A stretch of DNA of 36,252 nucleotides from an uncultured bacterium. GTDB taxonomy: Bacteria > Latescibacterota > MWCZ01. Shown here one piece after another: positions 9,667 through 36,199 of this stretch. Below the pieces are notes generated by a model that saw only the letters and a list, made by a program, of their open reading frames with translations, was not told where the DNA came from and did no database searches. The position numbers and the translations under genes are program-made. The stretch's first letter is position 1, and the number at the start of each line of letters is the position of its first letter. The DNA lies in NCBI GenBank assembly GCA_964606675.1, contig CAZSJP010000001.1, forward strand, positions 1 to 36,252, written 5' to 3'.

Positions 9667-9938
9667 CGATGACCTCGATCTTGTTCGGTCTGTTCGCACG
9701 CCGGCATCGCCAGCCGAGCGTGCGATTGGGCAGGAACGCTCTTCGGGAGGGCTGCGGGACAGCCACTCGCACGGTCACGACAACATGACCGTAAAAATGA
9801 AAAATACGACCGATCCGTACACGGGGGCAACGAAGGTAGGGAGAAGTCGTTCCGCTTGGCTCCGCTCGCCAAGCGAGGTACCATCTCCGTCGACGAGCTG
9901 CAACGCAGAGCGGCCACGGGTGAGAAGCGGAGTGGGCA

Positions 9939-10720: not shown

Positions 10721-11680
10721 GTGGCAAGCGTTGCATATGTGTCCCATCCCGACTACGAACTGCACGTTCAGGGGCCGATGCACCCTGAACGTCCGGAGCG
10801 CGTGACGGCGATCAACAGCCATCTCGAAACAACCGATCTGTGGTCCCGCCTGCATCCTGTCACTCCGGAACCCGCACCGATCGAGACTATCGAATCCGTC
10901 CACGACCCGGCGTACGTCGAGGCACTGGCCGAGACGTGCGAACGTTCCGGCGGCGGGCTGCTCGTCGATGGTCGCGAGACCGGCATAGTGCCCAAGTCGT
11001 TCAACGTGGCACGGCTGGCCGTCGGCGCCGCTACGGCCTCGGTGGACTCGGTCATGAACGGCAATGCGAGCCGCGCGTTCAGCGCCGTTCGTCCGCCGGG
11101 GCACCATGCGGTGCGCGGCGGCGCGATGGGGTTCTGTCTCTTCAACAACGTCGCTATCGGCGCGCGGTATGCGCAACGACAATACGGCATCGAGCGGATC
11201 GCCATAGTCGACTGGGACTTCCACCACGGCAACGGAACGCAAGAGGCGTTCTGGCGCGATCCGGACGTGCTATTCTGCAGCGCTCACTATTCGCCGGCGG
11301 CGCCGATGGCGTACCCGGGCACCGGGTATTGGCACGAGCGGGGCGAGGGCAAGGGCGAGGGGCTGACGGTCAACCTTCCGCTGCCACCCCATACCTCCGG
11401 ACCAGAATACGTTCGGGCCTTCGACGAGGCGCTTGTGCCGGCCATCGAGAGCTTCCAACCGGAGATGATCTTCATATCCGCCGGCTTCGATGCTCACCGC
11501 GACGATCCGCTCTCGCGCATGTTCCTCGATGAAGCCGATTTCGGTAAGCTCACAGAGCGCGTCGACGTGCTGGCCGATAGATTCGCCGATGGTCGAGTCG
11601 TGTCCGTGCTTGAGGGTGGCTACAACGCGGCAGCCACGGCACGGTCCGTCGAGCACCACATTCGCGCTCTGATAGGGTGA
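10721..11680 (+). CDS. histone deacetylase-family (class II HDAC/AcuC-like) deacetylase
   Basis: HPERPERV, RPPGHHA, DWDFHHGNGTQ and the EGGY motifs of the arginase/HDAC superfamily are present. I start it at GTG 10721 (VASVAYVSHPDYE...). The track ORF start at 10385 would overlap tsaB with an Arg-rich, non-protein-like extension. Confidence 0.88.
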   Translation: MASVAYVSHPDYELHVQGPMHPERPERVTAINSHLETTDLWSRLHPVTPEPAPIETIESVHDPAYVEALAETCERSGGGLLVDGRETGIVPKSFNVARLAVGAATASVDSVMNGNASRAFSAVRPPGHHAVRGGAMGFCLFNNVAIGARYAQRQYGIERIAIVDWDFHHGNGTQEAFWRDPDVLFCSAHYSPAAPMAYPGTGYWHERGEGKGEGLTVNLPLPPHTSGPEYVRAFDEALVPAIESFQPEMIFISAGFDAHRDDPLSRMFLDEADFGKLTERVDVLADRFADGRVVSVLEGGYNAAATARSVEHHIRALIG

Positions 11681-12192
11681 TGGACGGGTTGCACGTGCGG
11701 CCGGCCGAGGCCCCCGACGTGTTGCCCATCGTCGCGATGGAGGCCGAGTCGTTTCCGGCGCCGTGGTCGGATACGCAGATCGCGCCGTATGTCGGCACAC
11801 AACAACCTGCCGCGCTGGTCGCGGTTCTCTGCGGCTCTTCGTGTGGGTACCTGCTGTGCAGACTCGTGCTCGACGAAGCTGAGATCGACCGCGTCGGTGT
11901 CGATCCCGGCAACCGACGACGTGGCATCGGCCGTGCGTTGCTCCATCGGTGCCTTCACGACCTGGAGGAACGTGGCGTGAAGCGCGTCTGGCTGGAAGTG
12001 GCGTCTTCGAACGCCCCTGCGATCGGGCTGTATGAGAGCTTAGGGTTCGAGGCCGTCGACACTCGGCGCGGGTACTACGGCGCACCGTCGGGCCTTGGCC
12101 GGGGAAGCGCTCGTCAAGCGGCGGTTGCCCCGGAGGATGCACTGATGATGCGGCTTGCTCTGCAGCGACAGACGGAGACCCTACCCGCATGA
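11677..12192 (+). CDS. rimI: ribosomal-protein-alanine N-acetyltransferase (GNAT)
   Basis: GNAT motif A (VDPGNRRRGIGRALL) and RimI-like N-terminus (IVAMEAESFPAPWS). The start (GTG 11677 or ATG 11680) overlaps the deacetylase stop TGA at 11678-11680. Confidence 0.85.
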   Translation: MMDGLHVRPAEAPDVLPIVAMEAESFPAPWSDTQIAPYVGTQQPAALVAVLCGSSCGYLLCRLVLDEAEIDRVGVDPGNRRRGIGRALLHRCLHDLEERGVKRVWLEVASSNAPAIGLYESLGFEAVDTRRGYYGAPSGLGRGSARQAAVAPEDALMMRLALQRQTETLPA

Positions 12193-13046
12193 GACCCCGC
12201 TCGGAGACAGCCGAATGGCTGCGCGCCCAAGGAGTAGCGCATATAGCGGGGGTCGTCGTGCTGGGGAGCGGATGGGCGCCGCTGGCGGACCGTGTCGATG
12301 TGCTTGGCCGGTGGGCCTGTTCGGATGTGCCGGGTGCCTCCGCGACGTCCGTGGCAGGTCATCCGGGAGAGATCGTTTGGGGTAGATGGTGCGGGACTCC
12401 CGTGCTTCTCTTCGTCGGACGATGGCACGGATATGAGGGCTGCACGGCACAGGAAGTCGTTTTGCCCGTCAACGTTGCCGTGGACCTCGGCAGCGAATGG
12501 CTTCTCTGCACCAACGCCGCAGGAGCCGTATCGCCGTTGGTAGACGTGGGCCAACTCGTCGCCATCACGGACGATCTGGAGACATCCAGTTCGAGCTGCC
12601 TCGAAGCGCTGCGTTGTAACGGCGGCCCGTCCGATCGGCTTGCGGCCCGAGACGAGCTCGCGATAGGACGCCCGACCTATTCGCCCCGACTGCTCGCGGC
12701 CTTGTCGGAGGCCGCCACCGAGGCGAACGTTCACTTGGGCAGGGGCGTTCTGGCCATGATGACCGGACCCAACTACGAGACGCCCGCCGAGGTCCGTATG
12801 TTGCTTCGGACGGGTGCCACGGTTGTCAGCATGTCTACCGTGCCGGAAGCCAGGTACGCCGTTCGCCTCGGATTGGACGTGGCGGCGATTTCGTGCGTGA
12901 CGAACCGAGCGCCGACCTACCCAGGGGCACACGTGACACACGAGGAAGTGCTGGTGGCATGTCGACGGGCGCAGGGCGACGCCGCGGCACTCATGGAGAA
13001 ATGGATGAGGCACGATCTCGTTGCACGGGCGCATGGCGCGCCCTGA
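12189..13046 (+). CDS. punA: purine nucleoside phosphorylase (trimeric PNP/MTAP family)
   Basis: GHPGEIVWG, FVGRWHGYEG, LCTNAAGAV and MMTGPNYETPAEVRMLLRTGATVVSMSTVPE are PNP-family blocks. The ATG overlaps the rimI stop (ATGA at 12189-12192). Confidence 0.85.
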   Translation: MRPRSETAEWLRAQGVAHIAGVVVLGSGWAPLADRVDVLGRWACSDVPGASATSVAGHPGEIVWGRWCGTPVLLFVGRWHGYEGCTAQEVVLPVNVAVDLGSEWLLCTNAAGAVSPLVDVGQLVAITDDLETSSSSCLEALRCNGGPSDRLAARDELAIGRPTYSPRLLAALSEAATEANVHLGRGVLAMMTGPNYETPAEVRMLLRTGATVVSMSTVPEARYAVRLGLDVAAISCVTNRAPTYPGAHVTHEEVLVACRRAQGDAAALMEKWMRHDLVARAHGAP

Positions 13047-13187
13047 ACGCACCCGACGGAACGATGTTACCCGCTTGCGCCGATTCGCGTGCCTGGGCGT
13101 GAGCGTGTCGACCCTGACGAACGGGTGCCGGCATCCGGAGAGACAGTGCGCCTGTCACCGCAAGCGAGCACCAAGCTGAAGAGGTAG

Positions 13188-20558: not shown

Positions 20559-21587
20559 TCAGCCCCGGTATTTCGCCCGTAGAGCGTCCATCTCCCGCTC
20601 GTATACGTCCATGCGGTCGTCGTCGATGCCGGCGCGTTTCGAGCCGTATGGCGAGCCGGTCGTCTTCGTATAGGGCTGTACGTTCGCGCCCTTGCGCGCG
20701 GCGTACATCAGGCCGCCGATGCCAGTGTCGACCCCCTCGGACACTTCTATCGCACGGCAGCTGTCGAACGACGCCTCCCGCGCACCGACGATGTCCTTTG
20801 CGAGCATTCTGTCGTAGATCGCTCGCAGCGTTTCAGGATTCGTGTTGCATCCCTGACCGATGACTCCGGCGGCGCCAAGCGTGATGGCGAACATGTACGC
20901 CAGTTCGTCGCCAGCAATGAAGGCGAAGTTCGTGTCGGCGGCAACCATCGCCAGCCATTCCAGGCGAACCATTTCCCCGGATGAGAACTTCATCCCTGCG
21001 ATGTTCGGCAGTTCGAGCAGACGCGCAAGCAACGAAGGCGTCATGAGATACTCTTCGGGCAGGCCCGGCGCCTGATACATCACGATCGGCACGTCGATTT
21101 CGCCGGCGACGGTCTCGAAGTACTTCACGACGGTGTCTTCGAGCGGCACGTTGTCTTCAGGGGCCAGAGCCGCCGGAAGAACCAGTACGACGGCGGTCGA
21201 TCCCTCTTTCTGGGCATGCTGAGACAGCTCGATACTCTCTCGCGTGAACACTTCCGGGTCGGGACGATCCGCCGTGTTGCCACCGTAGATGCCCGACGTG
21301 CCCGGCATGACTCCTGCCCGCCCGTCCGCCTGGTCGATGACGATCTCGGATATCTTCTTCACCTCGTCGTAATCGAACGCGTACATGCGCCCGAGCCCGC
21401 AGCGGGGGAACAGCGTGGTGATCGAGCCGATTCCGATCAGGTAGTCCGTGTATGCCCGGATTCCCGCATCGTCTAAGGTGCCATCGGGGTTGCATGGCGT
21501 GAACATCGGCGTGATGACGCCGTGCAGAAAGGCGGGTATTTCTTGGCCTGAGTAGGGTTGCGTGACTGGGGTCGTCCATTTGTCCAC
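20559..21587 (-). CDS. DapA/N-acetylneuraminate-lyase-family class I aldolase, divergent paralogue 1
   Basis: Collinear with DapA: VITPMFTPC, PGTSG, VMYQAPG (Tyr of the YN.P block), GMKFSSGE (Schiff-base Lys position), IAGDE. GTG start at 21587 has AGGAG upstream. Confidence 0.85.
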   Translation of the reverse strand: MDKWTTPVTQPYSGQEIPAFLHGVITPMFTPCNPDGTLDDAGIRAYTDYLIGIGSITTLFPRCGLGRMYAFDYDEVKKISEIVIDQADGRAGVMPGTSGIYGGNTADRPDPEVFTRESIELSQHAQKEGSTAVVLVLPAALAPEDNVPLEDTVVKYFETVAGEIDVPIVMYQAPGLPEEYLMTPSLLARLLELPNIAGMKFSSGEMVRLEWLAMVAADTNFAFIAGDELAYMFAITLGAAGVIGQGCNTNPETLRAIYDRMLAKDIVGAREASFDSCRAIEVSEGVDTGIGGLMYAARKGANVQPYTKTTGSPYGSKRAGIDDDRMDVYEREMDALRAKYRG

Positions 21588-21634
21588 GTTCTGGTCTCCT
21601 GAAGGCTATGTCGTGCAAGGGCGCTACGGCGATG

Positions 21635-22708
21635 CTATTGGCCGGTGCGCTCCCACCACTGATTCTGCGTGTAGCGGCTTCTAAGCTCGTCCATCTGCCT
21701 GACGAACCGCTCTAATCTTTCGGAGGACACCGGCTCGATTCCAGCCTTCGTAAACGGCTGTATCGGCTTGCCTTTGTACGCCAGGTAGCTCAGCCCGGCG
21801 GCGACGGCGTTCAACCCGTCGGTGATCGATACGGCGCGGCTTGCGTCCATCGCGGCGCGGCTCGCTCCGGCGTAGTCGGAGGCCATCAGCCGCTCGTACA
21901 CGGCTTTGAGTATCTCGGGGTTGTTGCTCGCTCCTTGTCCAATGACGCCCGTGCCTCCGAGCATGAACAGCGCCGAGAACGCGCGCTCGTCTCCGGCGAT
22001 CAGGGCGAAATCGCTGCCCTCCACTACCTCCGCGATCAGGGTCAGTGGGTTCATCCTGTCGGTCGAGTACTTCAGCCCGACGATGTTCGGGATTGCCATG
22101 AGTCGTTCCAGCAGCCTCGGTCCGATCCGGTAAGTTCGTCTATACGGCGGGGGCTGGTAGATGAGTATTGGCATATCGGTCTCGGAGGCGACGTCTCGGA
22201 AGTATTCGAATGCGGTGTCGTCGTCGCCTCTGCTCTTGACGAGTTCGGAGGGTACCAACAGTACGACGGCGATCGCATCTCTGTCCTGAGCGTGGCGGCA
22301 AAGCTCAATGCTCTGTCGGATGTATGTCGCCCGGTCCAGGGTGCCGTTGTATATGCCGGCGCACCCGGCCATGACCGGCACGCGTCCGGCCGCTTGGTCG
22401 GCCACGACGTCTATCAGCCGCTTCACCTCGTCGAATTCGAACTCGAACATCTTCCCGAGTCCGCCCCGAAGGAACAGGCCGGATATGGCTCCGGACTCGA
22501 TAAGGACGTCGGTGTACGCTCGTATCGCCGTCTCGTCGAGCGTGTGGTCGCTGTTGCACGGCGTGAACATGGGTACTATCACGCCATGGAGGTATCGAGG
22601 GGTTCGGGCGCCCGTCAGCGGGTGCACCACGGGCGCTTTCCAGTCAATCACTAGCTTCCCTTTCGGAGATCCGCGGACCGCAGGAACCGGGAGTGAGTCG
22701 TCGGCCAT
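21635..22708 (-). CDS. DapA/NAL-family class I aldolase, divergent paralogue 2
   Basis: It carries the same blocks as paralogue 1: VIVPMFTPC, LIYQPPP, GLKYSTDR, IAGDE. An alternative GTG start at 22651 (VIDWKAPVV) aligns better with the N-termini of the other two copies. Confidence 0.82.
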   Translation of the reverse strand: MADDSLPVPAVRGSPKGKLVIDWKAPVVHPLTGARTPRYLHGVIVPMFTPCNSDHTLDETAIRAYTDVLIESGAISGLFLRGGLGKMFEFEFDEVKRLIDVVADQAAGRVPVMAGCAGIYNGTLDRATYIRQSIELCRHAQDRDAIAVVLLVPSELVKSRGDDDTAFEYFRDVASETDMPILIYQPPPYRRTYRIGPRLLERLMAIPNIVGLKYSTDRMNPLTLIAEVVEGSDFALIAGDERAFSALFMLGGTGVIGQGASNNPEILKAVYERLMASDYAGASRAAMDASRAVSITDGLNAVAAGLSYLAYKGKPIQPFTKAGIEPVSSERLERFVRQMDELRSRYTQNQWWERTGQ

Positions 22709-22795
22709 GCCGCGGTGACGTCACGCAACAAGAACGTTCACGCGAGCGCATGGGGCAACCGCATCGGTGTGGTTCATATGCCCGCGCCCCCTGGC

Positions 22796-23800
22796 TCAAC
22801 TCAGGTATGGCTCCCTGATTGAGTCGAGCGCTCGCTCGGACTCGTCGAGCCGTTCGTTGGGTATCGCTCTGGTCGGAACGACGGTGTGTGGCAGAACGCG
22901 TGTCCCCTTGCGCGCGGCGTACCCGAGGCTCCAGATCGCCGAATCGACCCCGTTGGATGGCTCCAGCGCGAGGACCGAGTCCCACGCCGCCTTCCGCGCA
23001 CCATCGTAGTCTTTCGCCATCATCCGGTCGTACACGGCTCTCAGGATCTCTGCGTGCGTGTTGCAGCCTCTGCCTATGACGCCGGTCGCGCCGATCATCA
23101 TGGTGTAGATGAACGCCCGTTCGTCGCCGGCGATGAACGCGAAGTTCGTTCCCTTGGCAACGACAGCCAGCCGACCGAAAACGACCATGTTGCCGCTCGA
23201 TATCTTGACGCCGACGACGTTGGGGATTTGCAGCAGCCGCTCCAGAGTCGGCGGAGTCAGCCGGTAGGCCTGTTCGGTACCGCCCGGCTGATACAGGATG
23301 ATCGGGATATCCAGTTCGGCCGCAACCGTCTCGTAGTACTCGCATATCGTGTCGGCCAGCGGCTTGCCTTCCTCGGCGCGCAGAGCCATCGGCAGAGCGA
23401 GCACCGCAGCCGCCGCGCCGACCTTCTGGGCCAGTTGCGAAAGCTCGATGCTCTGTCGAGTGTAGATGGCCGGCGCGGGCCTCTCAGCCGGGTCGCCGGA
23501 GTACATGCCGCACGTGCCGACCACCACGGGCGCCCTGTCGCCGGCATGGTCGACGACCGTTTTCGTGAGCCGTTCGACTTGCTCGTACGAGAAGCCGTAC
23601 ATTTTTCCGACTCCCCCGCGAGGGAAGAGCGTGTCCACCTTGAGATCGTCTATGAGGAAGTCGACGTACGCGCGGACGCCGGCCTCGTCAAGTGCGCCGT
23701 CGGTGGTGCATGGCGTCGCCATCGGGGCAATCGTGCCGTGCAGGTATCGCGGTATGTCCTGCCCGCTGAATGGCTGACGAATCGTGGTGTCCTTGGCCAT
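22796..23800 (-). CDS. DapA/NAL-family class I aldolase, divergent paralogue 3
   Basis: Blocks TIAPMATPC, ILYQPGG, GVKISSGN and IAGDE. ATG 23800 is preceded by GGGAGG at 6-nt spacing. Confidence 0.85.
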   Translation of the reverse strand: MAKDTTIRQPFSGQDIPRYLHGTIAPMATPCTTDGALDEAGVRAYVDFLIDDLKVDTLFPRGGVGKMYGFSYEQVERLTKTVVDHAGDRAPVVVGTCGMYSGDPAERPAPAIYTRQSIELSQLAQKVGAAAAVLALPMALRAEEGKPLADTICEYYETVAAELDIPIILYQPGGTEQAYRLTPPTLERLLQIPNVVGVKISSGNMVVFGRLAVVAKGTNFAFIAGDERAFIYTMMIGATGVIGRGCNTHAEILRAVYDRMMAKDYDGARKAAWDSVLALEPSNGVDSAIWSLGYAARKGTRVLPHTVVPTRAIPNERLDESERALDSIREPYLS

Positions 23801-23925: not shown

Positions 23926-25629
23926 ATGCACGGAAAACGACTCAACAACCTGGTAACCGAATTGGCCACCGCCGCCGATCTGTCCGCAGATGGCGGCCTC
24001 TGTTTCGAGAACCCTCGCGAGGGATGGGTGTTCATCGGCCTGGCATCGGGCGATGCCGTCCTCGACGGCACGACCGTTCTCGAGGGTGGCGGCGAGACGA
24101 TGCGCTACCTGGATGCCGGTCCACACGATTTGCAGGTGGAAGGTGGCCCAACTACTGCTGAGCTTTCCGTGCGCACGGTGCCGGAACTCGCGTACTGCAA
24201 GTTCGTGTTCGATCCGCACGTGAAAGAGTACGGCCCGTACAACGCCGACTTCCTTGCCAAGCATGTCTTCCCTCACTGTAACACCGTGGTGGGGAGCGCA
24301 AGCCCGGAGACTAGAGCCTACGCCGAGAAGTGGAAGGCTGCCGGCGGCCGATGGATCATCGAGTGCCCGTTGCCGGGCCTTAGCGCCGAGACGGTCGACT
24401 TCGAGGACGTGTACAACGCATGGTCGACCAACCCCGGTATGGCCGATCCGCTGTACGACGGGGTAGTGGTCGACGAGTTCTTCTCGGGCGACAACCCCAA
24501 GTACCGCCAGTGGACCGATGCGATGAACCGGGTCCTAGACGAGAACCCCGGCAAGCGATTCTATCCGTACTTAGGCTCGCATTGGCCGGACAAGGACGAT
24601 TGGCACCGGGGCGGCAAAGACAACCGCGAAGAGAGCAGCAAGGCGTTTCTCGGTACGGCGCTCAAGAGAGGGCAGGTCATAGCCTGGGAGCGCTACGTGC
24701 AGGAGAGGCACGAGCAACAGATCGGAGCCGAGTTCATTCAGAGGCGACTGGGCGAGCCGGTGAAACGCTGGCAGGAAGTGTTCCCCGGATCGCCGGGCCA
24801 GCTGCTGGTAACGTTCGGATACATGACCATCACCGAGACGCTGAGCGTCCACCCCTCAGTCAACTACAAAGTCTTCATGGACATGCAGTTCAACTTCGTC
24901 GCGAACCGGCCCGAGTTCGACGGCCTGTACGGCATAATGGAGTACACCGCCGGATACGCCGACGAAGAGACGGTGCGCTGGGCGGCGCGGCTCTACCGAC
25001 ACTACGGAATCGAAGGCAACACGGACATGCTCACCGAGCGGCTGGGTTGGAAATACAAGTCGGATCATATCTACAACCCAGAGTTTAACTTCGACCTCGA
25101 AGGCTGGGACGTGCCGATTTGGATCGAGAGGAACGTCGCCGCCAGGAGCGTGCCTGGCTTCGGGCATATCGAGGGACGGTGGCCGCGAACCAGCGCCGGC
25201 GACACGTTCCTCTACGTGGAACGCTCGGACGAGCGCCCGAATGCTCTCAGCCAGCCGATACGAAACCTGGAGCCGGGGAAGCTCTACAGCGTCAAGATGA
25301 TCAGCGGCGACTACGGCGATCTGGTGGCGGGTCGTTCCGAGGAGAAACAGCACGGGCTGTCGTTGTCGGTCGACGGTGCTGATGTAATCGCGGGCAAGAC
25401 GTTCCGGAGCGTCGTCGCCAACAACTACGCTCACATGCAGGAGCCGTTCACGACGGCAAAGCCGTTCTGGCTCAACTTCCATCAGCTCGTATTTCGCGCC
25501 GGAGACGGCGTGGCAACGCTCAGTATCTCGGACTGGGCGACCGATGAAGAACCTGGTGGCCCGATCGGGCAGGAGCTGATGTGCAACAACGTCGAGCTGC
25601 ATCCGTACTTCGACGAGAGCGGCATGTAG
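23926..25629 (+). CDS. 567-aa protein of unknown function, paralogue A (possible glycoside-hydrolase-like enzyme with a C-terminal jelly-roll/CBM-like domain)
   Basis: The internal ATG at 23926 (MHGKRLNNLVTELA) gives exactly the same length as paralogue B and a collinear alignment. The C-terminal NPEFNFDLEGWDV... region resembles galactose-binding-like or CBM modules. No signal peptide. Confidence 0.8.
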   Translation: MHGKRLNNLVTELATAADLSADGGLCFENPREGWVFIGLASGDAVLDGTTVLEGGGETMRYLDAGPHDLQVEGGPTTAELSVRTVPELAYCKFVFDPHVKEYGPYNADFLAKHVFPHCNTVVGSASPETRAYAEKWKAAGGRWIIECPLPGLSAETVDFEDVYNAWSTNPGMADPLYDGVVVDEFFSGDNPKYRQWTDAMNRVLDENPGKRFYPYLGSHWPDKDDWHRGGKDNREESSKAFLGTALKRGQVIAWERYVQERHEQQIGAEFIQRRLGEPVKRWQEVFPGSPGQLLVTFGYMTITETLSVHPSVNYKVFMDMQFNFVANRPEFDGLYGIMEYTAGYADEETVRWAARLYRHYGIEGNTDMLTERLGWKYKSDHIYNPEFNFDLEGWDVPIWIERNVAARSVPGFGHIEGRWPRTSAGDTFLYVERSDERPNALSQPIRNLEPGKLYSVKMISGDYGDLVAGRSEEKQHGLSLSVDGADVIAGKTFRSVVANNYAHMQEPFTTAKPFWLNFHQLVFRAGDGVATLSISDWATDEEPGGPIGQELMCNNVELHPYFDESGM

Positions 25630-25645
25630 GCGGCAGCCTGGCGTA

Positions 25646-25704
25646 GCGGCCTGACGGCCGCTTTGGGAGATTGCTTTGCTCGGCTGCGCCGAGGCGCAAT
25701 CTCC
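25646..25704 (+). terminator. stem-loop cluster directly after the stop of paralogue A (candidate intrinsic terminator)
   Basis: GCGGCC-TGAC-GGCCGC (25646-25661) is followed by TTT. Next comes a 9-bp outer stem GGAGATTGC (25666-25674) / GCAATCTCC (25696-25704) enclosing a CTCGG/CCGAG inner stem. The U-tract is weak. Confidence 0.35.
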
Positions 25705-26041
25705 GGCCGTGTACGAAACGGCGCGGGGGCGCGGAGCTTGGGCCCCTTCGATCGGCTAGAACGTCGGTACGTCTTGCCCGCGGGCACGTTGGCATCGTTG
25801 TCTGCCCGGACACGGCACGCCGCCCCATTCGCTCCCGACTAGAAGTCGAGGGCTGGCGTTGCGAAGTCACTGCGGTTCCTAGGCCGCCGGACGCCCTTGC
25901 GCAGTCAGCATCGGTACGGTATTTTCCGCGACAACGCTGCTGGGAGCGGAGTGTTGGCAGAGGCTGACGTGCGGGGAGGTGCCTGTGAGGGAGTCGAAAC
26001 TGATCGCAGCGTCTCAGCCACTTGCCTGGGAGGGATACCTT

Positions 26042-27208
26042 ATGTACACAGCGCTGTTGGCTGTAGTTGGCTTGGCCGCGATTCTCCTACTCTTCTTCTT
26101 CGTCCGGCGAGCTGTCTTCGTCAGCATCAGGCAGGACGAGCTCGCCATAGTGCTCAGGCGTGGCCGCGTGACGGGCAGGGTACTTGGCCCCGGCCAATAC
26201 TGGTTGAGGCCGGTCACCGACACCATAGAGCGATACCCGCGCCGCGAGCTTACTTACATGACCGTAAGAAGCGAAACGTACGAGAGAGTTCAGGCGGGGG
26301 AGCTACAGGAAGTGGCACGGAGCACAAACTACATCGGAGTGCCGCTCACGGTAACAACCGAGGATGGAGCCAGGGGAGACATACTTTACACTCTGAGATT
26401 CCGAATCGATTCAGATCGACTATCGGTTACACACGAGAAGCTCGGCAGGGCGGGCATCGAAAGGGTGGTGACTCAGGAGAGCCGCCACGTAGTGCGGGCC
26501 ACGATGAGGGAGAATGATTACTCCGCAATCAAGCTCCTGCAGTCAGAGAGCAAGTCCGTAGAGGCAGCGGTGACGGAGCGGCTAGCCGGTCGCCTTGAAG
26601 TGTATGGCCTCGACCTGACGCACTTCGGGTTCAGGGAGCCGGACCTCGCGGAAGCCGGCGATCTGCTGAATCGTGAGATGATAATGAACAAGGAGAAGGA
26701 TATTGAGTTGGAGGAGACCCGCAAGGCACTTGAGATAGAAACGGCGAAAAGCGAGCTGCACGCTGAGACGGAGCGCAGGTCATCTGAGCACACCGTCTCG
26801 GAAGCAGATGCGTTCGCGGAGGCGCGCAAACGAGAGATGGCCGCTGACGCGTACGAGATCAGGCAGCAGGCGGAGGCCAAGGAAGAGGCGGAACGGCGCG
26901 AGATAGAGACGGAGGCGCTCCGCATCAACGAACTAGCGGACGCTCGGAGGAAGGCTGCCGAGGGCGAAGCTAAGGGCAACCAAGCCGTCGCGGAAAGCCT
27001 GACTAAGTCGCTCATCGACTACCGGTCGCAGCAGGCCGAGTGGGAGGTGCAGCAGTCGGCGGCCGGGCGGTGGGACGGCAAGTTGCCGATCCTCTCAGGC
27101 CAGAACCCGTTCACGTTCGCGAGCCTTACCGACGCGATTACCGCGATGATAGATCGGGAGCCATCCAGGACTGGGAAAGAGGGTGCTGATCAAGAGGAGG
27201 TGATATAG
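26042..27208 (+). CDS. SPFH/band-7 (flotillin/prohibitin-like) membrane protein with a long coiled-coil tail
   Basis: N-terminal TM helix MYTALLAVVGLAAILLLFFFV and an SPFH-like core (VFVSIRQDELAIVLRRGRV...GPGQYWLRPV). The C-terminal E/K/R/A-rich region has heptad character. ATG 26042 is preceded by GGAGGG. Confidence 0.8.
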   Translation: MYTALLAVVGLAAILLLFFFVRRAVFVSIRQDELAIVLRRGRVTGRVLGPGQYWLRPVTDTIERYPRRELTYMTVRSETYERVQAGELQEVARSTNYIGVPLTVTTEDGARGDILYTLRFRIDSDRLSVTHEKLGRAGIERVVTQESRHVVRATMRENDYSAIKLLQSESKSVEAAVTERLAGRLEVYGLDLTHFGFREPDLAEAGDLLNREMIMNKEKDIELEETRKALEIETAKSELHAETERRSSEHTVSEADAFAEARKREMAADAYEIRQQAEAKEEAERREIETEALRINELADARRKAAEGEAKGNQAVAESLTKSLIDYRSQQAEWEVQQSAAGRWDGKLPILSGQNPFTFASLTDAITAMIDREPSRTGKEGADQEEVI

Positions 27209-27483
27209 AGAGCCGTAGGTCTATCGCTCTCAGATCCCTTGTCGCGTGATGTCGTGGCGAGTACCGCACCGAGTGCGCATGCGATCGTCTGTAGGCCTCA
27301 CCCCCGACCAGCATGTCTTGCGTCCCCCCAGACCGGCACTCGCTACCACGAGCCTGGTCGCCGATATCTCGACGTGATCTTCCATCAGGTTGTCCACACG
27401 CGGCATCGGAGGGGTAGGGCATGGTCGCCTACGGCGACCACGCGTGCCACTCCCTCTTCGGGTTGGAGACACGGTTGGCCAGG

Positions 27484-27565
27484 GCGCGGTCTAACCGCGT
27501 GCAGATCAGCCCTCGACTGAAGTCGAGGGCGAGGTGTTTTCAGGGGCGCAATGCTTTGCGCCCCT
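27484..27565 (+). promoter_or_regulatory. three consecutive stem-loops in the 5' leader of paralogue B
   Basis: The three stem-loops are GCGCGGT-CTA-ACCGCGT (27484-27500), a perfect 9-bp stem GCCCTCGAC-TGAA-GTCGAGGGC (27509-27530), and a perfect 10-bp stem AGGGGCGCAA-TGCT-TTGCGCCCCT (27542-27565). The last ends 64 nt before the GTG start. Confidence 0.35.
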
Positions 27566-27628
27566 CTTGCATCTCCGCCTGGAAGCATCGGACGCAGATA
27601 CGGAAACACATAGAAGGGGAGCGATACC

Positions 27629-29332
27629 GTGAAGAGGCTGAACAACCTAGTCATCGAACTGGCTGCCGAAGAGGACCTTGCCGCCGGCGCCGAACTAAAG
27701 ATTTCGAACCCGCGCGAAGGGTGGGTGTACTTGCGAGCCGCCAGACCGGACGCGAAGCTGGCTATCGATGGCGACGGGATATCGCTGCGATCCGTCTGCG
27801 GCGCCGAAGAGACGATGCGTTATCTGCCCGAGGGCGAATTCACTGTGACGGCGGCAGGCGGCGCGAGCGGCCTCGTCGTGCGAGCCGTGCCTGAGCTGAT
27901 GTTCTGCAAGTACCAGTACAACCCTATGGTGCCGGAGTACGGACCGTACGATTGGGAGTTCTTGAAGCGGTACGTGCTGGACCATGTCAACACCGTGATC
28001 GGTGGCTTCTCCGACGAGCAGGTTCCGCGCATCGTCGAATGGAAAGAGCGTAGCGGCAAGTGGATCGTCGAGGGTAGCCTGCCCGGCGAACAGGATGAGA
28101 TCGCCGATGTCGAGGAGAACGTCGCCGCCTGGAGCGAAGGTCCCGGCATGCAGGAGCCGCTCTGCGACGGTATTCTGCTCGACGAGTTCTTCAGCGGCGA
28201 TAGAGCGGCATTTCCCGGCCGGACGGAGACCGTCAGGCGCCTGGCGGCCGACCCGCGATACGCCGGCAAAAAGGTATATCCCTACTGCGGCTCGCACTAC
28301 CCAGATCGCGACGATTGGGGTGCCTTCGACGAGAACGACGCGACCAACTCGAGCGTGCCGTTCTATCGTGCCGTCTTCGAGAGTGGCTACCGTGTCGCCT
28401 GGGAGCGGTACATGCAGGAGCGTCACGACGAAGACGTGGCGCAGGAACACATCGAGGACAAGATGGGCCGGTCGATGAGAGCGTGGCGCGCGGTGTACCC
28501 CGACGCCGCCGAAAACATGATCGTGGTGCTGGGGTACATGTCCGTCGGCTTCGCGCTCAACTGCCATCCGTCGGTCGACATGAAGGCCTACTACGACATG
28601 CAGTTTCGATACATGGCCACCGCCCCCGAGTTCGAGGGGCTATACGGCATCACGGGGTGGACGTCGGGCTACGCCGAGGCCGAAACGCTCAAGTGGACCG
28701 CGCGCCTTTACCGCCACTACGGAATCGAGGGCAACACCGAGCCGCTCTGCGATCGATTCGGCTATACCTATCGCCTCGATCACATCAGGAACCCCGACTT
28801 CGCTCAGCATTGGGAGGGTTGGTCGGTGCCGGTCAGCATCGAACGCAATTGTTCCGTCAAGAGCATCGGCGGCTACAGCATGCTGCAAGGCCGATGGCAG
28901 CACACGGCGGTTGGCGACACGTCGCTGCTGCTGAAGCGGAGCGCCGAGCGTCCGAACGCGGTGTCGCAGCCGATCAGGAAGCTGGTTCCGGGCGAGCTGT
29001 ACTCGGTGAAGATGATAACGGCAGACTATCACGATTTCCTCGGAGGCGTGTCGGCCCAGAAGAAGCACGCCGTCGGATTCGAGATCGAGGGCGGCGAGGT
29101 GCTGCCCGAGCCAACGTTCCAGAGCGTCGTGGGGCATCATCCGACGATAAAGCACGAGCGTTTCAGCCCGGAGAATCGCTTCTACTTCAACCATCACCAC
29201 GTCGTGTTCAGAGCGACCGCGGAGACGGGCGAACTGACCATCACCGATTGGCCCGGCTCAATGGACCGAGGCCCGGTCGGGCAGGAGATCATGGTGAACT
29301 TCGTAGAGCTGCAGCCTTACTTCAGTGGGTAG
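27629..29332 (+). CDS. 567-aa protein of unknown function, paralogue B
   Basis: GTG start is preceded by AAGGGGA. It is collinear with paralogue A over its whole length, sharing KRLNNLV.ELA, NPREGW, ETMRYL, VPEL..CK, EYGPY, DEFFSGD, YPY.GSH.PD.DDW, AWERY.QERH, PEF.GLYGI, ARLYRHYGIEGNT, NP.F...EGW and GQE.M.N.VEL.PYF. Confidence 0.85.
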   Translation: MKRLNNLVIELAAEEDLAAGAELKISNPREGWVYLRAARPDAKLAIDGDGISLRSVCGAEETMRYLPEGEFTVTAAGGASGLVVRAVPELMFCKYQYNPMVPEYGPYDWEFLKRYVLDHVNTVIGGFSDEQVPRIVEWKERSGKWIVEGSLPGEQDEIADVEENVAAWSEGPGMQEPLCDGILLDEFFSGDRAAFPGRTETVRRLAADPRYAGKKVYPYCGSHYPDRDDWGAFDENDATNSSVPFYRAVFESGYRVAWERYMQERHDEDVAQEHIEDKMGRSMRAWRAVYPDAAENMIVVLGYMSVGFALNCHPSVDMKAYYDMQFRYMATAPEFEGLYGITGWTSGYAEAETLKWTARLYRHYGIEGNTEPLCDRFGYTYRLDHIRNPDFAQHWEGWSVPVSIERNCSVKSIGGYSMLQGRWQHTAVGDTSLLLKRSAERPNAVSQPIRKLVPGELYSVKMITADYHDFLGGVSAQKKHAVGFEIEGGEVLPEPTFQSVVGHHPTIKHERFSPENRFYFNHHHVVFRATAETGELTITDWPGSMDRGPVGQEIMVNFVELQPYFSG

Positions 29333-29390
29333 CCTGCGGGCCCGCGGCCATCGAACGTGCCCGGCGATTCACCGGGCGAGCGAGGCGCAG

Positions 29391-30263
29391 ATGAAACCAG
29401 CGTGGGACGATCTGGAGCTTAACGGCATCGACCTGCACTTCCATGCGGGCACCGAACGGCTGGCGGAGTATTCACTCGCCGACGTGGTCGCTTATGCTCG
29501 CGCAACGGGACGTAAGGTGCTGGGCCTCACCGATCATTGGGGCCGATACGTTCGTCCGTCGAAGAAGGAACTTCGCCACTACACGGGTGATGCTTCCGGT
29601 TACGCGCACTTCGCGGCGGACGTGGCCGATGTAAGAACGAAGTACCCCGACGTGGCGATCGCTTTCGGGCCGGAGATACCCCTTTCCGACATCATCGACG
29701 GCAACTGCGACGCTGCGTTCGAGCCATCCGAAGTCGACTATTTCATGGGCGAACAGGGCGGCAGCGGCCCGAGCGACACAATCGGCGAGGAATACATAGC
29801 AGGAATGGAGCACATGGCTCGGCTTCGCGACCGGGTCGGCAGGCCGTGCTTCATCGCGCACCCGTTGCGCAGCCGCGTGAACTACTACGTGGGGAAGACA
29901 GGCCCCGGCCCGAAATACCCAGCGCAACCGGCGGGCGGCCCTCTTGCACATTGCGCCGACCCGTTGGCTCACGTCGACGAACTGTTCGGCATGAGCACTC
30001 GGGATCTCGCACGGGCATCGGTCGAGTACGACGTGCCGATGGAGATCAATGAGTCGAGTTGGGGGCGTATACTCGGGCAGAACCAGGAGTGGTTCGCCGA
30101 GCGCTATCTGTTCTTCTTCCGGGCGATGCTCGATATGGGCGCGGAGGTCGTGCTCGGCAGCGACCAGCACAGCGTCGAAGCGGGGGCATGCACGCCGTTT
30201 GCGGTGGCGAAGATGCTCGGCGTCAAGCCCGGCGACGTGAAGTTCTTGCGGCATTGGGTGTAG
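29391..30263 (+). CDS. PHP-domain metal-dependent phosphoesterase/hydrolase, paralogue 1 (290 aa)
   Basis: PHP motifs: GIDLHFHAGTE, LGLTDHW, FIAHPLR, MEINES and VLGSDQH (compare the GSDAH motif). ATG 29391. Confidence 0.8.
   Translation: MKPAWDDLELNGIDLHFHAGTERLAEYSLADVVAYARATGRKVLGLTDHWGRYVRPSKKELRHYTGDASGYAHFAADVADVRTKYPDVAIAFGPEIPLSDIIDGNCDAAFEPSEVDYFMGEQGGSGPSDTIGEEYIAGMEHMARLRDRVGRPCFIAHPLRSRVNYYVGKTGPGPKYPAQPAGGPLAHCADPLAHVDELFGMSTRDLARASVEYDVPMEINESSWGRILGQNQEWFAERYLFFFRAMLDMGAEVVLGSDQHSVEAGACTPFAVAKMLGVKPGDVKFLRHWV
29955..30171 (+). repeat. near-identical tract shared with 30968-31184 (copy 1)
   Basis: At a constant offset of 1013 nt I count about 7 mismatches in ~217 nt. This includes a perfect 108-nt run (29999-30106 = 31012-31119). 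The 5' halves of the two genes are clearly more diverged. Confidence 0.85.
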
Positions 30264-30403
30264 GTGGTGGTGTCGTCGTTGAAGTAGCCGACCACAGCAC
30301 CCGGCTATTCCGAACGCAGTGAGGAACCCCTATCATGTCGAGATGCTGCCTCATTTCAACGGGGGCTCTTCGGCCAGCAGACATCGAACCTCAAGAGGCG
30401 CAC

Positions 30404-31276
30404 ATGACACCTGTATGGGACGATCTTCAGCTCAACGGCATCGATCTGCACTTCCACGCGGGCACCGAAAGGCCTGAGCCGTACTCGTTGGACGACGTCA
30501 TTTCCTATGCTCGAGCAACGGGCCGTCGCGTGCTGGGCATCACCGATCACTGGCGTCGGTACACTCATCCGGCGAGAAAGCAGCTTCATCACTACGCCCC
30601 CGATATGTCGGGTTTCGCACAGTTCGCGGCAGACGTGGCGGAGGCCCGCGAGGCGCACACGGACATGGCCATCGCTTTCGGGCCGGAGGTACCTCTCCCC
30701 GACATCGTCGAAGGGAATTGCGGGGAGGCATTCCGGGTGCCCGAAGTCGACTACTTCATGGGCGAACCGGGCAGCGTCGGTACCGGGACCGGCGTCGGCA
30801 AAGAGTTCGTGACGGCGATCGGGTACATGGCGCGGCTTCGCGACCGGGTTGACAGACCTTGCTTCCTGGCGCACCCGCTGCGCGGTTGGGTGAACTACTA
30901 CATAGGGGCGACGGGCGTAGGGCCAAAACACCCCGAACGGCCACCGGGTCGTCCGCTTGCTCAGTATGCCGACCCGCTGGCTCACGTCGACGAGTTGTTC
31001 GGCATGAGCATTCGGGATCTCGCACGGGCATCGGTCGAGTACGACGTGCCGATGGAGATCAATGAGTCGAGTTGGGGGCGTATACTCGGGCAGAACCAGG
31101 AGTGGTTCGCCGAGCGCTACCTGTTCTTCTTCCGGGCGATGCTCGATATGGGCGCCGAGGTCGTGCTCGGTAGCGACCAGCACAACGCCGAGGCCGGCGC
31201 GTGCACGCCGTTCACGGTCGCCAAGATACTCGGCGTCACCCCCGGCGACGTGAAGTTCTTGCGGTATTGGCTCTGA
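30404..31276 (+). CDS. PHP-domain metal-dependent phosphoesterase/hydrolase, paralogue 2 (290 aa)
   Basis: It has the same motifs and the same length as paralogue 1. ATG 30404 (MTPVWDDLQLNGIDLHFHAGTE). Confidence 0.8.
   Translation: MTPVWDDLQLNGIDLHFHAGTERPEPYSLDDVISYARATGRRVLGITDHWRRYTHPARKQLHHYAPDMSGFAQFAADVAEAREAHTDMAIAFGPEVPLPDIVEGNCGEAFRVPEVDYFMGEPGSVGTGTGVGKEFVTAIGYMARLRDRVDRPCFLAHPLRGWVNYYIGATGVGPKHPERPPGRPLAQYADPLAHVDELFGMSIRDLARASVEYDVPMEINESSWGRILGQNQEWFAERYLFFFRAMLDMGAEVVLGSDQHNAEAGACTPFTVAKILGVTPGDVKFLRYWL
30968..31184 (+). repeat. near-identical tract shared with 29955-30171 (copy 2)
   Basis: See copy 1. Confidence 0.85.
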
Positions 31277-33734: not shown

Positions 33735-34697
33735 CTACGGCTGAAACATCTCAAGCGTGTTGACGGAGAAGTTGCCGTCGTGGCCCCCAACTGCGTACAC
33801 GACGCTGTCCACTGTCACGGTCGCGAGGCGTTCCCGTCCAGTGGGCATGTACGGGCCCATCGACCATGATTGCGTGGCGGTATCGTAAATCTGCAGCAGG
33901 TTGCGACCCGCCCCGTATCCGTCCGTTCCCCCGACTATGTGCAACCTGGACCCGAGGGCTGAGATTGCAGACAATGACCGCGGAACGGGCATGGGCGGGC
34001 CGGTTGACCATTGCGCCCCGAGCGGCGCAGCCGGATCGTAGATACTTAGCGTGCTCATGCCACCGTAACCGCCCAACGCGTACACGTTTCCGTCGATGGC
34101 TGCAACAGCAAGGCCGCTCCGGGGGGTCGGAATGTCCTGCCCTGCCGTCCATGTGTCTGTCGCGGGATCGTAGACCTCGAGCGTGCTAAGGCGACTCCCG
34201 CCGACGCTCCATCCCCCAAACACGTACACCTTGCCGTCGAGGGCCGCGGCCGCAAGGTCGCTTCGTGGTGTGAGCATCGAGCTACCCGTGCGCCACGAGT
34301 TCGTCGCAGGATCGTAGATCTCCAGTGTGCTGAGGCGGCTGCCGTCCAAGCCCCCCACCGCGTACACCTTGCCGTCCACGGCGGCGGCCGCAAGATACAT
34401 CCGGGCCGTTGGCATGGGTTCGCCGGTCGTCCATGATTTCGTCGCGGGATCGTAGATCTCCAGCGTGTTGAGGCGGGTGTCCTTCCAGCCCCCAACCACG
34501 TATACCTTGCCATCTACGTTGACAGCCGCAAGGCCTTGCCGCGCGGTGGGCATGGACGGGGCGGTCTGCCACGGCGCAACATAGTTGGCCGCCTCGGGAT
34601 CCCTTGGGTTGTTAAGCAGTATCGTCGCTTTGTCTGAACAGCCACCAAGCAAAGCCGTGAAGCCCAGAAGACATATCGCTGGCGCGTTGACGATCAT
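33735..34697 (-). CDS. Kelch-repeat beta-propeller lipoprotein
   Basis: About six repeats of the type MPT.R..LAAA.VDGKVY..GG......L.TLEIYDPAT..W. ATG 34697 gives MIVNAPAICLLGFTALLGGCSD (lipobox) with AGGTGG upstream. The longer track ORF start at 34763 is unnecessary. Confidence 0.85.
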   Translation of the reverse strand: MIVNAPAICLLGFTALLGGCSDKATILLNNPRDPEAANYVAPWQTAPSMPTARQGLAAVNVDGKVYVVGGWKDTRLNTLEIYDPATKSWTTGEPMPTARMYLAAAAVDGKVYAVGGLDGSRLSTLEIYDPATNSWRTGSSMLTPRSDLAAAALDGKVYVFGGWSVGGSRLSTLEVYDPATDTWTAGQDIPTPRSGLAVAAIDGNVYALGGYGGMSTLSIYDPAAPLGAQWSTGPPMPVPRSLSAISALGSRLHIVGGTDGYGAGRNLLQIYDTATQSWSMGPYMPTGRERLATVTVDSVVYAVGGHDGNFSVNTLEMFQP

Positions 34698-34762
34698 CCG
34701 CCACCTACCGTGCGTCACGTATGGTTCATCCATGGCGCCTCCTCCTCCTGCGCATGGCAGCA

Positions 34763-36199
34763 TCAGAATGTCAGCGGCAGCAAGATGCCGATGCTCAGTG
34801 CGGCACTAGCGATGCCGTAGAAGATGTTTCGCTTGGATGCGGCAGCATCCCCTCTCGCTGCCGCGGCATCGATCTCACCCCGCAGCCGCGCGACTTCCGG
34901 CCTGTCCTTCTCCACCTGGTACTCTCGGTACACCGTCATTCGCTCATCGTAAGCAGCTTTGGCGTCCATGTTCATCCTGTAGCCGATCCCGGCTGCAACG
35001 GCCGCGACAGCGAGCGAAACCCACCTGATACGCGCTTTCCGAACACGAGCGACCTGGGGGAGTAGCGGCAGATCGCCACTCAGAAATGTCTCCTGCCCAA
35101 GCCGGATCACCACGTCCCTTGAGAGCGAATCATGATCGGCCAGCTTCGCGACAACAAGATGGCTCCCCACGCCGATGGGCCGGCGTGACACGGTCTCCGT
35201 TCCTATGCTCGCTCCGTCGACATGCACGATCGCGCCCGCCGGCTGGACGCTGATACTCAGGTATCCGCACGGCTCAAGCCGCGCCATCACGGCAGCACGG
35301 TCGTTCAGGTCGACCCGGACACGCTCCTGCCACGGCGCGCGATTCGGCGCAGTGACTCTTACAACGTGGCTACCGACGGCAAGGTCAGATATCAGCACCG
35401 GGGTTGTACCGCGTGTTCGGCCATCGACCTTCACTGGAGCGCCCGACGGGGCGCTCTGAATGAACATACTGCCGGAACCAAGGCGGAGTGCGAGGGTGAC
35501 CTTGACCAGCCTGTCTCGTGCGATTGTAACCCGTTGTTTCGCCACAAGGTTGCCTTTGACGAGCCTCACCAGGTGCTCGCCCACCGGCAATCGCTGAAAC
35601 GTCGCCGGGGTCACCTCCCGACGCAGTCTGCCATCCAGTGCTATCGTCGCCCCAGGCGGGGTCGACTCGACGAATAGCATGCCCATGCCCTCGCCACGCT
35701 GGAATTCGGTCGTCTGCATCGGCTCGACTCCGGCCAGTTCGGCGGCCACCTGCGCGATTGTTGTCGTGAGGATGTCCTCCAGAGTGCAACGACAGTCCTT
35801 GACTGCCGTTTCCTCGATCGCTCCGGTTGCGACGTCGATGATGCGCAGACTGATCGAGTACACACTGCCGATACGCCCGACAGTGCCGCCCACCATTTTC
35901 TCGGCGCCCGCGAGTTGCCCGACTTCGACAACGCAATCGGTCGCCACGCAACCGGACTGCTGGAAGCCCTGTTCTTCGAGGATGGCAGCCATCTGATCGC
36001 GCTCGATGACCGTGTATTCGCCTGTCTGGAACAGCTCGGCCCGCAGACGGTCCGAGAGCATACTAAGCTCCGGACCGGACACGTCCTCGCTTGTCAGATC
36101 GAGAACGCCAATGCGGGTCAGTCCCACCGATTGAGCAGCGGCGCCGTGCGCCACGAGCGCACAGACGAGCATCCCTCGTAGGTAGTTCGTCAGCCCCAT
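34763..36199 (-). CDS. envelope protein: CsgG/LpoB-like N-terminal domain, three PEGA domains, C-terminal TM anchor
   Basis: Signal peptide, then IGVLDLTSEDVS...YTVIERDQMAAILEEQGFQQSGCV...GAEKMVGGTVGRIGSVYSISLRIIDVATGAI (CsgG/LpoB-like pattern). PEGA-like units are GATIALDGRLRREVTPATFQRLPVGEHLVRL, GAPVKVDGRTRGTTPVLISDLAVGSHVVRV and GAIVHVDGASIGTE...GVGSHLVV. The C-terminus is hydrophobic. GGGAGG RBS. Confidence 0.85.
   Translation of the reverse strand: MGLTNYLRGMLVCALVAHGAAAQSVGLTRIGVLDLTSEDVSGPELSMLSDRLRAELFQTGEYTVIERDQMAAILEEQGFQQSGCVATDCVVEVGQLAGAEKMVGGTVGRIGSVYSISLRIIDVATGAIEETAVKDCRCTLEDILTTTIAQVAAELAGVEPMQTTEFQRGEGMGMLFVESTPPGATIALDGRLRREVTPATFQRLPVGEHLVRLVKGNLVAKQRVTIARDRLVKVTLALRLGSGSMFIQSAPSGAPVKVDGRTRGTTPVLISDLAVGSHVVRVTAPNRAPWQERVRVDLNDRAAVMARLEPCGYLSISVQPAGAIVHVDGASIGTETVSRRPIGVGSHLVVAKLADHDSLSRDVVIRLGQETFLSGDLPLLPQVARVRKARIRWVSLAVAAVAAGIGYRMNMDAKAAYDERMTVYREYQVEKDRPEVARLRGEIDAAAARGDAAASKRNIFYGIASAALSIGILLPLTF

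Follow-up and report, generated by a model that had tools for sequence, protein, structure and literature searches.

Within clan GH-K of the glycoside hydrolases (GH), GH20 enzymes carry a D-E pair, GH18 enzymes a DxxDxDxE motif, and both families a conserved Tyr; a near-invariant Glu after an Asp on strand 4, together with a Tyr after strand 6, is typical of GH18, GH20, GH84 and GH85. GH168 is reported to use an Asp on strand 4 and a Glu on strand 6 as its catalytic geometry (PMC11685898), and GH148 has a GH-A barrel split by an inserted carbohydrate-binding module (CBM), CBM4, its catalytic motifs being NE on strand 4 and E on strand 7 (PMC5725463). The exosialidase EnvSia156 of GH156, from an environmental (hot-spring) metagenome, combines a barrel with a C-terminal beta-sandwich (PMC6254351, PMC6811678). 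Here, two paralogous open reading frames (ORFs), termed A and B, were analysed in a 36,252-nt stretch of DNA (the window; contig CAZSJP010000001.1) from an uncultured bacterium of the Latescibacterota, and the working name family X was used for the whole protein family to which both belong. Family X is judged to be a probable new glycoside-hydrolase-like family of predicted function, and A and B would be two anciently diverged members of this undescribed family, which has three domains.

ORF A (23926-25629, plus strand) and ORF B (27629-29332, plus strand, GTG start) are each 1704 nt long, corresponding to 567 codons and a stop. BLASTP aligned residues 4-562 of A with residues 2-565 of B at 46% identity and 64% positives (E = 0); gaps took up just 13 positions. 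This similarity is far beyond chance, and an earlier note made from the sequence alone was therefore right in describing same-size paralogues alignable over their full length. At the DNA level, the sole repeat common to the two genes (24433-24491 and 28142-28200) covers the codons of D183-E184 discussed below. The longest ORF in the frame of A opens at 23770 and would encode 619 aa, and the shorter start is supported because leaderless members in an alignment of 56 family sequences mostly begin 3-9 residues ahead of a conserved LNNLV strand, as do A (MHGKR-LNNLV) and B (MKR-LNNLV). A purine-rich stretch lies 7-8 nt 5' of both starts, which had originally been chosen from ribosome-binding-site context. 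Neither protein has a hydrophobic leader, in agreement with the earlier statement that signal peptides are absent, and the nearest relatives of the two window copies are also leaderless; signal-peptide or lipobox-like N-termini were present in 22 of the 56 aligned homologues (~40%).

Sequence searches were carried out against Pfam 2025, NCBIfam 2026 and PDB 2026. Pfam-A and NCBIfam returned zero families at E <= 1 for either protein, phmmer searches of all PDB chains with a single sequence gave one chance-level match only (E = 1), and a profile of the 56 sequences gave nothing at E <= 10 against PDB chains. Scanning the 56 aligned members against Pfam (E <= 10) produced sub-threshold matches only, all to beta-sandwich models, namely GH101_dom-5 in 7 of 56 members (best 0.005), and DUF642, CBM_4_9 and CE2_N in one or two members each. 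The earlier failure to assign A and B to any family was thus reproduced with single sequences and with the profile, and no significant match to an established family was found in Pfam, NCBIfam or PDB. Source annotations of members, where present, read 'hypothetical protein' or 'LamG domain-containing protein', and nothing fitting a described family of this kind was found in the literature searched, including work on new GH families. Family X is described by none of the three libraries; the kind of protein, a multi-domain glycosidase with a triosephosphate-isomerase (TIM) barrel, is already well known, and it is the family itself that is new to them.

The family is large. A word-indexed search found at least 473 clusters at 90% identity, and an exhaustive hidden Markov model (HMM) search of 1.84 billion representative proteins, counted as 50%-identity clusters, found 1396 clusters at E <= 1e-3, 1099 at E <= 1e-10 and 758 at E <= 1e-30. 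In a set of genomes representing 185,579 species of bacteria and archaea, relatives were encoded in 325 stretches, the best 80 of which all came from metagenome-assembled genomes (MAGs), and the closest, at 51% identity, were from Latescibacterota. Relatives occurred in Latescibacterota, Armatimonadota, Planctomycetota, Hydrogenedentota, Verrucomicrobiota, Poribacteria, Acidobacteriota, Omnitrophota and Lentisphaeria/Lentisphaerota; no plasmid homologues of family X were found. The module of 570 residues was always complete and took the C-terminal position in long proteins, with Laminin_G_3, CBM9_1 and CBM_4_9 domains fused N-terminally in other members, and once a GH29 alpha-L-fucosidase domain. 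This last protein (P0126, 1299 aa) holds GH29, Laminin_G_3 and a complete family-X module in one chain, a fusion that may hint at fucosylated substrates.

An AlphaFold2 model of A, built with the 56-sequence alignment, had a predicted local distance difference test score (pLDDT) of 95.4 and a predicted template modelling score (pTM) of 0.94. The model comprises an all-beta N-terminal sandwich (residues 1-85), a (beta/alpha)8 barrel (residues ~86-375, with eight beta-alpha units between 86 and 362 by DSSP), and, after a linker, an all-beta C-terminal CBM-like jelly roll (residues ~400-567), reproducing the layout proposed from the sequence, in which an N-terminal beta region and a central region with acidic motifs precede a C-terminal jelly roll. 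The barrel strands, assigned by DSSP, span residues 87-91, 120-123, 142-148, 179-185, 211-216, 252-256, 293-298 and 336-340, and the eight-unit barrel with D183/E184 and E255 at strand ends is that of the GH-type (beta/alpha)8 superfold. For the C-terminal domain, the Foldseek matches were CBM61 (2xon, TMt 0.61), GH5-CBM6 (2y8k) and a mannanase with a CBM (1wky), and sub-threshold Pfam matches were to GH101 domain 5, DUF642 and CBM_4_9. As modelled, this domain is a CBM-like jelly-roll fold with putative sugar binding, which bears out, as far as the fold is concerned, the resemblance to galactose-binding-like or CBM jelly rolls seen earlier.

The full-length model was searched against the PDB with Foldseek, with 192 matches at E <= 1e-3; of the best 50, almost all were multi-domain glycoside hydrolases. 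Among the top matches were a GH5 mannanase with a CBM (1wky, 3e-10), a GH66 dextranase (5axg, 6e-10) and a GH66 CITase (3wnn, 4e-8), and the matches listed also included GH5-CBM6, GH2 glucuronidases, GH13, GH31, GH27, GH101, GH26, GH79, GH35, GH18, GH20 and GH84, all at 8-13% identity and with low global template modelling (TM) scores. The isolated barrel was re-predicted (pLDDT 91) and searched separately (50 matches listed), and its best matches were GH20 (5ac4, 7e-6, TMq 0.54; 2epn) and the GH18-like protein BT1282 (8uwq), with GH18 chitinases reaching TMq 0.56. These models leave little doubt about the fold class, a TIM barrel of glycosidase type between beta-sandwiches, with no existing family close. 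In the same barrel-only search, the barrels of an epimerase (7dz3), an aldolase and triosephosphate isomerase scored about equally with glycoside hydrolases, and the barrel could accordingly be that of another carbohydrate-active enzyme (a sugar or sugar-acid isomerase, epimerase, lyase, dehydratase or transglycosylase) that acts together with the aldolase of the DHDPS (dihydrodipicolinate synthase) type encoded next to A. A metabolic reaction on an acidic monosaccharide would agree with the tight pairing with a gene of that aldolase/dehydratase superfamily. Against this, the family includes secreted and lipoprotein variants and proteins fused to LamG, CBM9, CBM4_9 and GH29 domains, features usual in enzymes that attack polymers or oligosaccharides and not in cytoplasmic monosaccharide isomerases; glycan binding is also indicated by the obligatory CBM-like C-terminal domain, and a conserved His/Asp/Glu metal-binding set was absent from the barrel strands, so that a non-glycosidase function is considered distinctly unlikely.

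Conservation was counted over 250 full-length family-X members, with residue numbers as in A. E184 was kept in 247 members, Y257 in 249 and E348 in 246, followed by D183 in 239 (96%; otherwise N or S), E260 in 235, E255 in 225 (90%; K, T, S, N or G elsewhere) and Y215 in 211 (otherwise W, F and once L). Essentially invariant residues further comprised E57, R358-H359-Y360, N384, F387, W394, R418, R433, N439, Q443, Y454 and D536-W537, and no conserved His/Asp/Glu metal-binding set on barrel strands was found among the 250 members. The codons of D183-E184 (24472-24477, plus strand) specify the C-terminal end of barrel strand 4 (strand 179-185), which reads D178-G-V-V-V-D183-E184-F, and those of E255-R-Y257-V-Q-E260 (24688-24705, plus strand) the end of strand 6 plus the loop after it; E348 starts the helix after strand 8, and strand 7 has G298-Y299 and no conserved Glu. 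Every conserved candidate active-site residue is present in both A and B, and B, whose equivalent D185-E186 pair is encoded at 28181-28186 (plus strand), keeps all family-invariant residues. The motifs quoted in the earlier note, DEFFSGD, YPY.GSH.PD.DDW, AWERY.QERH and NP.F...EGW, were likewise all found in both copies, but only parts of them extend across the family (D183, E184, F185, P214, Y215, E255, Y257, E260, N384, F387 and W394), and GSH.PD.DDW is limited to the closest subclade. From these conservation patterns, D183-E184, Y257, E260 and E348 likely mark the active site, with D183-E184 the best candidate catalytic pair and E184 the likely general acid/base.

This arrangement, an almost invariant Glu after an Asp (at times Asn or Ser) on strand 4 and an invariant Tyr after strand 6, is by analogy a GH-K-like candidate layout, and the resemblance agrees with the ranking of the barrel-only Foldseek search. 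Like GH20 and GH18 of clan GH-K, family X has a (beta/alpha)8 barrel, and the best barrel matches (5ac4, 2epn, 8uwq and 3n18) were found at TMq 0.49-0.56. Like GH20, it has adjacent Asp and Glu at the end of strand 4 (D-G-x-x-x-D-E-F), a likeness judged by strand position alone, and its near-invariant Tyr after strand 6 echoes the clan GH-K Tyr. Unlike either family, it did not match PF00728 or PF00704, and identity was 10-12%. The N-terminal domain is an all-beta sandwich, in contrast to the alpha/beta GH20b domain of GH20, and the C-terminal jelly roll is extra and obligatory; DxxDxDxE of GH18 is absent, the residues of strand 4 being spaced differently.

A different reading of the same residues would make A and B classical two-carboxylate retaining glycosidases of the GH66, GH31, GH27, GH101 or GH168 type, acting on alpha-linked sugars with D183 as nucleophile and E255 as acid/base. 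The Asp on strand 4 and Glu on strand 6 correspond to the GH168 geometry (PMC11685898), the order of N-terminal sandwich, barrel and C-terminal sandwich is shared with GH66, GH13 (TVAII), GH31 and GH101, which are among the top full-length Foldseek matches, and the weak C-terminal Pfam matches are to GH101 domain 5. The structural matches to GH66, GH31 and GH101 (5axg, 6e-10; 3wnn, 4e-8; 2xvk; 2zxq) were nevertheless at 8-10% identity, global TM 0.2-0.3 and a root-mean-square deviation of 13-25 Å, no HMM match was obtained, and GH66, GH31 and GH101 were not among the 50 matches listed for the isolated barrel. The strand-6 carboxylate E255 is not strictly kept and is the least conserved candidate (225 of 250), and in 11 members D183 gives way to N or S while E184 is retained, behaviour not expected of a nucleophile and its acid/base; each of the two residues is replaced in members keeping E184 and Y257. 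A retaining mechanism of this type is on balance regarded as unlikely.

It could also be argued that A and B lack catalytic activity and serve in carbohydrate binding or regulation, with a glycosidase-like fold retained, given that one of the top barrel matches, BT1282 (8uwq), is deposited as 'GH18-like' only and that the C-terminal jelly roll, and not the barrel, holds many of the invariant residues. E184, D183, Y257, E260, E348 and Y215 are, however, near-invariant at the catalytic face across the 250 members, which come from many phyla, and both window copies keep all catalytic-face residues, the pattern of an active enzyme. Loss of catalysis is therefore held to be highly improbable, and an active glycosidase with E184 as acid/base is preferred.

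Membership in other described families was also considered. The GH156 exosialidase resembles family X in that it was not recognisable from sequence prior to functional screening. In the GH156 structure 6rzd, in contrast to family X, the barrel starts from residue 6, without an N-terminal sandwich, and the catalytic residues are Asp14 and His134. Membership in GH156 was rejected on this difference in architecture, on the lack of any PDB sequence or profile match, and on an hhalign probability of 0.2% against GH156-like neighbours; 6rzd was not among the 50 matches listed in either the full-length or the barrel-only Foldseek search. GH148 was rejected as well, the family-X barrel being continuous and its strand 7 without a conserved Glu. 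Homology to GH20-like DUF4838 proteins encoded near some members was rejected at an hhalign probability of 0.15%, obtained with a comparison profile of 4 sequences.

The age of the two copies was assessed from their relatives. A was 59-55% identical to P0002, P0003 and P0004, B was 59-55% identical to P0012, P0009, P0017 and P0016, and a neighbour-joining tree placed A and B in separate clades. A recent tandem duplication was rejected, each copy being nearer to orthologues elsewhere (55-59%) than to the other copy (46%), and by these sequence comparisons A and B are members of two old paralogous lineages and not the outcome of local duplication. A-type and B-type genes occurred together in at least five genomes or contigs: the window; contig L001, where the two stand in tandem and are ordered as in the window; two Latescibacterota MAGs with the types on different contigs (L007/L081 and L008/L009); and the 1.03-Mb metagenome contig ERZ795049 NODE-1, with A and B types 295 kb apart (L098/L097). 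Tandem arrays of 2-3 family-X copies were present in L014, L089, the P0017 contig, L031, L049 and L052. Because A and B types co-occur and tandem arrays recur, non-redundant specificities are suggested, rather than gene dosage.

Gene neighbourhoods were counted in 85 genome loci and 48 further metagenome loci. In the window, A is divergently adjoined by a class I aldolase-like gene of the DHDPS/N-acetylneuraminate-lyase (NAL) superfamily (22796-23800, minus strand; PF00701, 2.2e-32), followed by a second (21635-22708, minus strand) and a third (20559-21587, minus strand) paralogue of the same atypical subfamily. DHDPS proteins linked to family X matched PF00701 at E values of 1e-29 to 1e-32, and none reached the cut-off of an NCBIfam equivalog (dapA, nanA, KdgD, HpaI or KDG aldolase). 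They keep the Schiff-base Lys, the preceding active-site Tyr and the G-D-E motif, as in the DHDPS/N-acetylneuraminate-lyase superfamily, and differ in having R-[GCS]-G-[LV]-[GS]-[KRQ] where canonical enzymes have the carboxylate-binding motif G-T-T-G-E; they also lack a second Tyr that the canonical L065 DHDPS has and, again relative to that protein, carry an insertion of 10-15 residues. The three tandem genes (20559-23800) look like an undescribed subfamily in their own right.

A cassette of a divergent DHDPS gene and family X was found in eight contigs (among them the window, L001, L014, L005/L006, L089 and the contigs of P0017 and P0011), with a relic in L086/L087 and with three DHDPS and two family-X copies in the window, three and one in the P0011 contig, and one and three in L014. 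The relic is a 116-aa ORF (L086, 9432-9782, minus strand; L087, 1707-2057, minus strand), upstream of and divergent from P0003, which matches the DHDPS subfamily as a fragment (E = 1e-26) and is apparently a degenerate remnant of the partner gene. The earlier proposal of a carbohydrate or sugar-acid context for A and B was supported, the DHDPS-family aldolase being divergently conserved in the A/B subclade; the PHP and esterase neighbours on which it also drew were not conserved. SPFH, PHP-like and esterase genes were rejected as functional partners, their homologues occurring in none of the 85 genome loci and none of the 48 metagenome loci.

Beyond the subclade, a family-wide conserved operon was rejected, the commonest neighbour, a GFO/IDH/MocA oxidoreductase, being present in 12 of 85 loci, with GH156-like ('GHL10') proteins, sulfatases, BNR_2 and DUF4838 in 4-7 of 85 loci each. 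B-type orthologues in L009, L081, L090 and L097 accompany a clear 376-residue homologue of the GH156 exosialidase (6rzd, 3.9e-31). In these Latescibacterota-like genomes, the homologue (951-2081 in L090) belongs to a conserved block with the B-type and BNR_2 genes and carried the precomputed label 'GHL10 (weak)' only. In the same four loci and in L099, the B-type gene has sialidase-like BNR_2 genes next to it, and PIG-L deacetylase genes are present in L081 and L090. A-type orthologues are convergent with M24, AP_endonuc_2, PfkB and Eda genes, a block that may be ordinary housekeeping synteny and was given little weight. The recurring contexts (DHDPS, GH156 and BNR_2) suggest the breakdown of glycans that have 2-keto-3-deoxy acid sugars as constituents or products, and a part in it is proposed for A and B because the pair adjoins the atypical DHDPS/NAL-type aldolase.

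In the favoured explanation, A and B would be cytoplasmic exo- or oligosaccharide-glycosidases, each for a different linkage, acting on imported oligosaccharides that are fragments of complex glycans, possibly sialylated, HexNAc (N-acetylhexosamine)-containing or uronate-containing. E184 would serve as general acid/base, assisted by D183 and Y257, with E260 or E348 as possible additional carboxylates, in an active-site layout nearest to that of the substrate-assisted clan GH-K (GH18, GH20, GH84 and GH85). In this lineage, the two enzymes would be coupled to the atypical DHDPS/NAL-type Schiff-base aldolase, so that the adjacent aldolases would cleave a released 2-keto-3-deoxy acid sugar (sialic-acid, KDN or KDG-like). 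The cytoplasmic processing of carbohydrates or sugar acids suggested in the earlier note is supported by the GH-type barrel, the fusions to LamG, CBM9, CBM4_9 and GH29, the lack of a signal peptide and the divergent aldolase.

Confidence differs among the parts of this explanation. That A and B are carbohydrate-active enzymes of a new family is held to be very probable, and that they are glycoside hydrolases with a catalytic E184 is thought fairly probable; the explanation as a whole, joining the three-domain glycosidase family, E184 as acid/base and the aldolase-coupled acid-sugar route, is favoured with moderate confidence. Substrate-assisted chemistry of the GH-K kind is offered tentatively, as a possibility leaning towards doubtful, and direct action on a ulosonic-acid glycoside seems improbable. 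A bolder proposal, in which the glycosidases of the A/B subclade would form a previously undescribed fold class directed at 2-keto-3-deoxy acid sugars, with a product that is cleaved by the adjacent aldolase, is something of a long shot. The candidates would then include a sialidase/KDNase of a third structural type, or an enzyme that liberates another nonulosonic or octulosonic acid, both rather improbable, and the invariant R358, R418 and R433 would bind the sugar carboxylate.

Several observations weigh against the favoured explanation. R358-H359-Y360, R418, R433, N439, Q443, D536-W537 and E57 are invariant yet lie outside the barrel strands. Structural likeness is at the general TIM-barrel level only (TM ~0.5, 8-13% identity), the epimerase (7dz3), aldolase and triosephosphate isomerase barrels match the isolated barrel at E-values similar to those of glycosidases, and the hhalign comparison with the DUF4838 proteins, made with its small profile, was negative. 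The aldolase link is confined to the A/B subclade, the two closest relatives of A are without an intact DHDPS neighbour, and family-wide no neighbour exceeds 12 of 85 loci. Searches of Pfam, NCBIfam and PDB would miss any recently defined CAZy family that has neither a Pfam model nor a structure.

Between the paralogues lies a gene for an SPFH/Band_7 membrane protein (25979-27208, plus strand; PF01145, E = 6.6e-15), as the earlier note had recognised. The protein has a single transmembrane helix at its N-terminus and is rich in Glu and Ala in its C-terminal region. The gap between this gene and ORF B (27209-27628) is 420 nt long and holds a terminator-like GC-rich hairpin followed by a T-run (27509-27530, plus strand, 9-bp stem), which is a consensus match only, terminator-like sites in the region being no commoner than in shuffled sequence; a second GC-rich palindrome at ~27543-27568 was seen by eye. 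Because hairpin and T-run stand in this gap upstream of B, it is suggested that ORF B is probably a transcription unit separate from the SPFH gene.

Downstream of B, tandem PHP-like paralogues (29325-30263 and 30335-31276, both plus strand) are 72% identical, with no Pfam match and weak NCBIfam matches to PHP and histidinol-phosphatase models only. Partial gene conversion at their C-terminal ends is suggested because the last ~100 residues are nearly identical, and the true starts are probably the internal Met codons (MKPAWDDL and MTPVWDDL). A Kelch gene (33735-34763, minus strand) encodes a 342-aa six-blade propeller with near-consensus repeats, matching designed consensus Kelch proteins (SAKe) at E = 6e-94 and KEAP1 at ~1e-62; it passes the Pfam NANM cut-off (50.1 versus 45 bits) but was rejected as a NanM sialate mutarotase, being a generic near-consensus Kelch protein. 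Elsewhere in the window, a 2508-aa ORF (2173-9699, minus strand) has as its sole Pfam match the central domain of UDP-glucose/GDP-mannose dehydrogenase (residues 1000-1066, 3e-6), and the next ORF (550-2160, 536 aa) has weak ATP-grasp (RimK-like) similarity. No Rfam families were found in the window, and an ARAGORN 'tRNA-???' call with a two-base anticodon (11982-12065, plus strand), overlapped by minus-strand ORFs at 11270-12190 and 12114-13052, is probably a false positive.

Overall, the observation from which the analysis started and each of its interpretive elements that was tested were confirmed or supported, with refinements concerning the PHP, esterase and SPFH neighbours and the age of the two copies. 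If confirmed biochemically, family X would be a new glycoside-hydrolase family of more than 1000 clusters in at least nine mostly uncultured bacterial phyla, whose glycan-degrading capacity is now judged from annotated CAZymes alone. The window copies, being leaderless and having a confident model, are practical expression targets, and the pairing of DHDPS and family X would offer a testable entry to an undescribed acid-sugar catabolic route.

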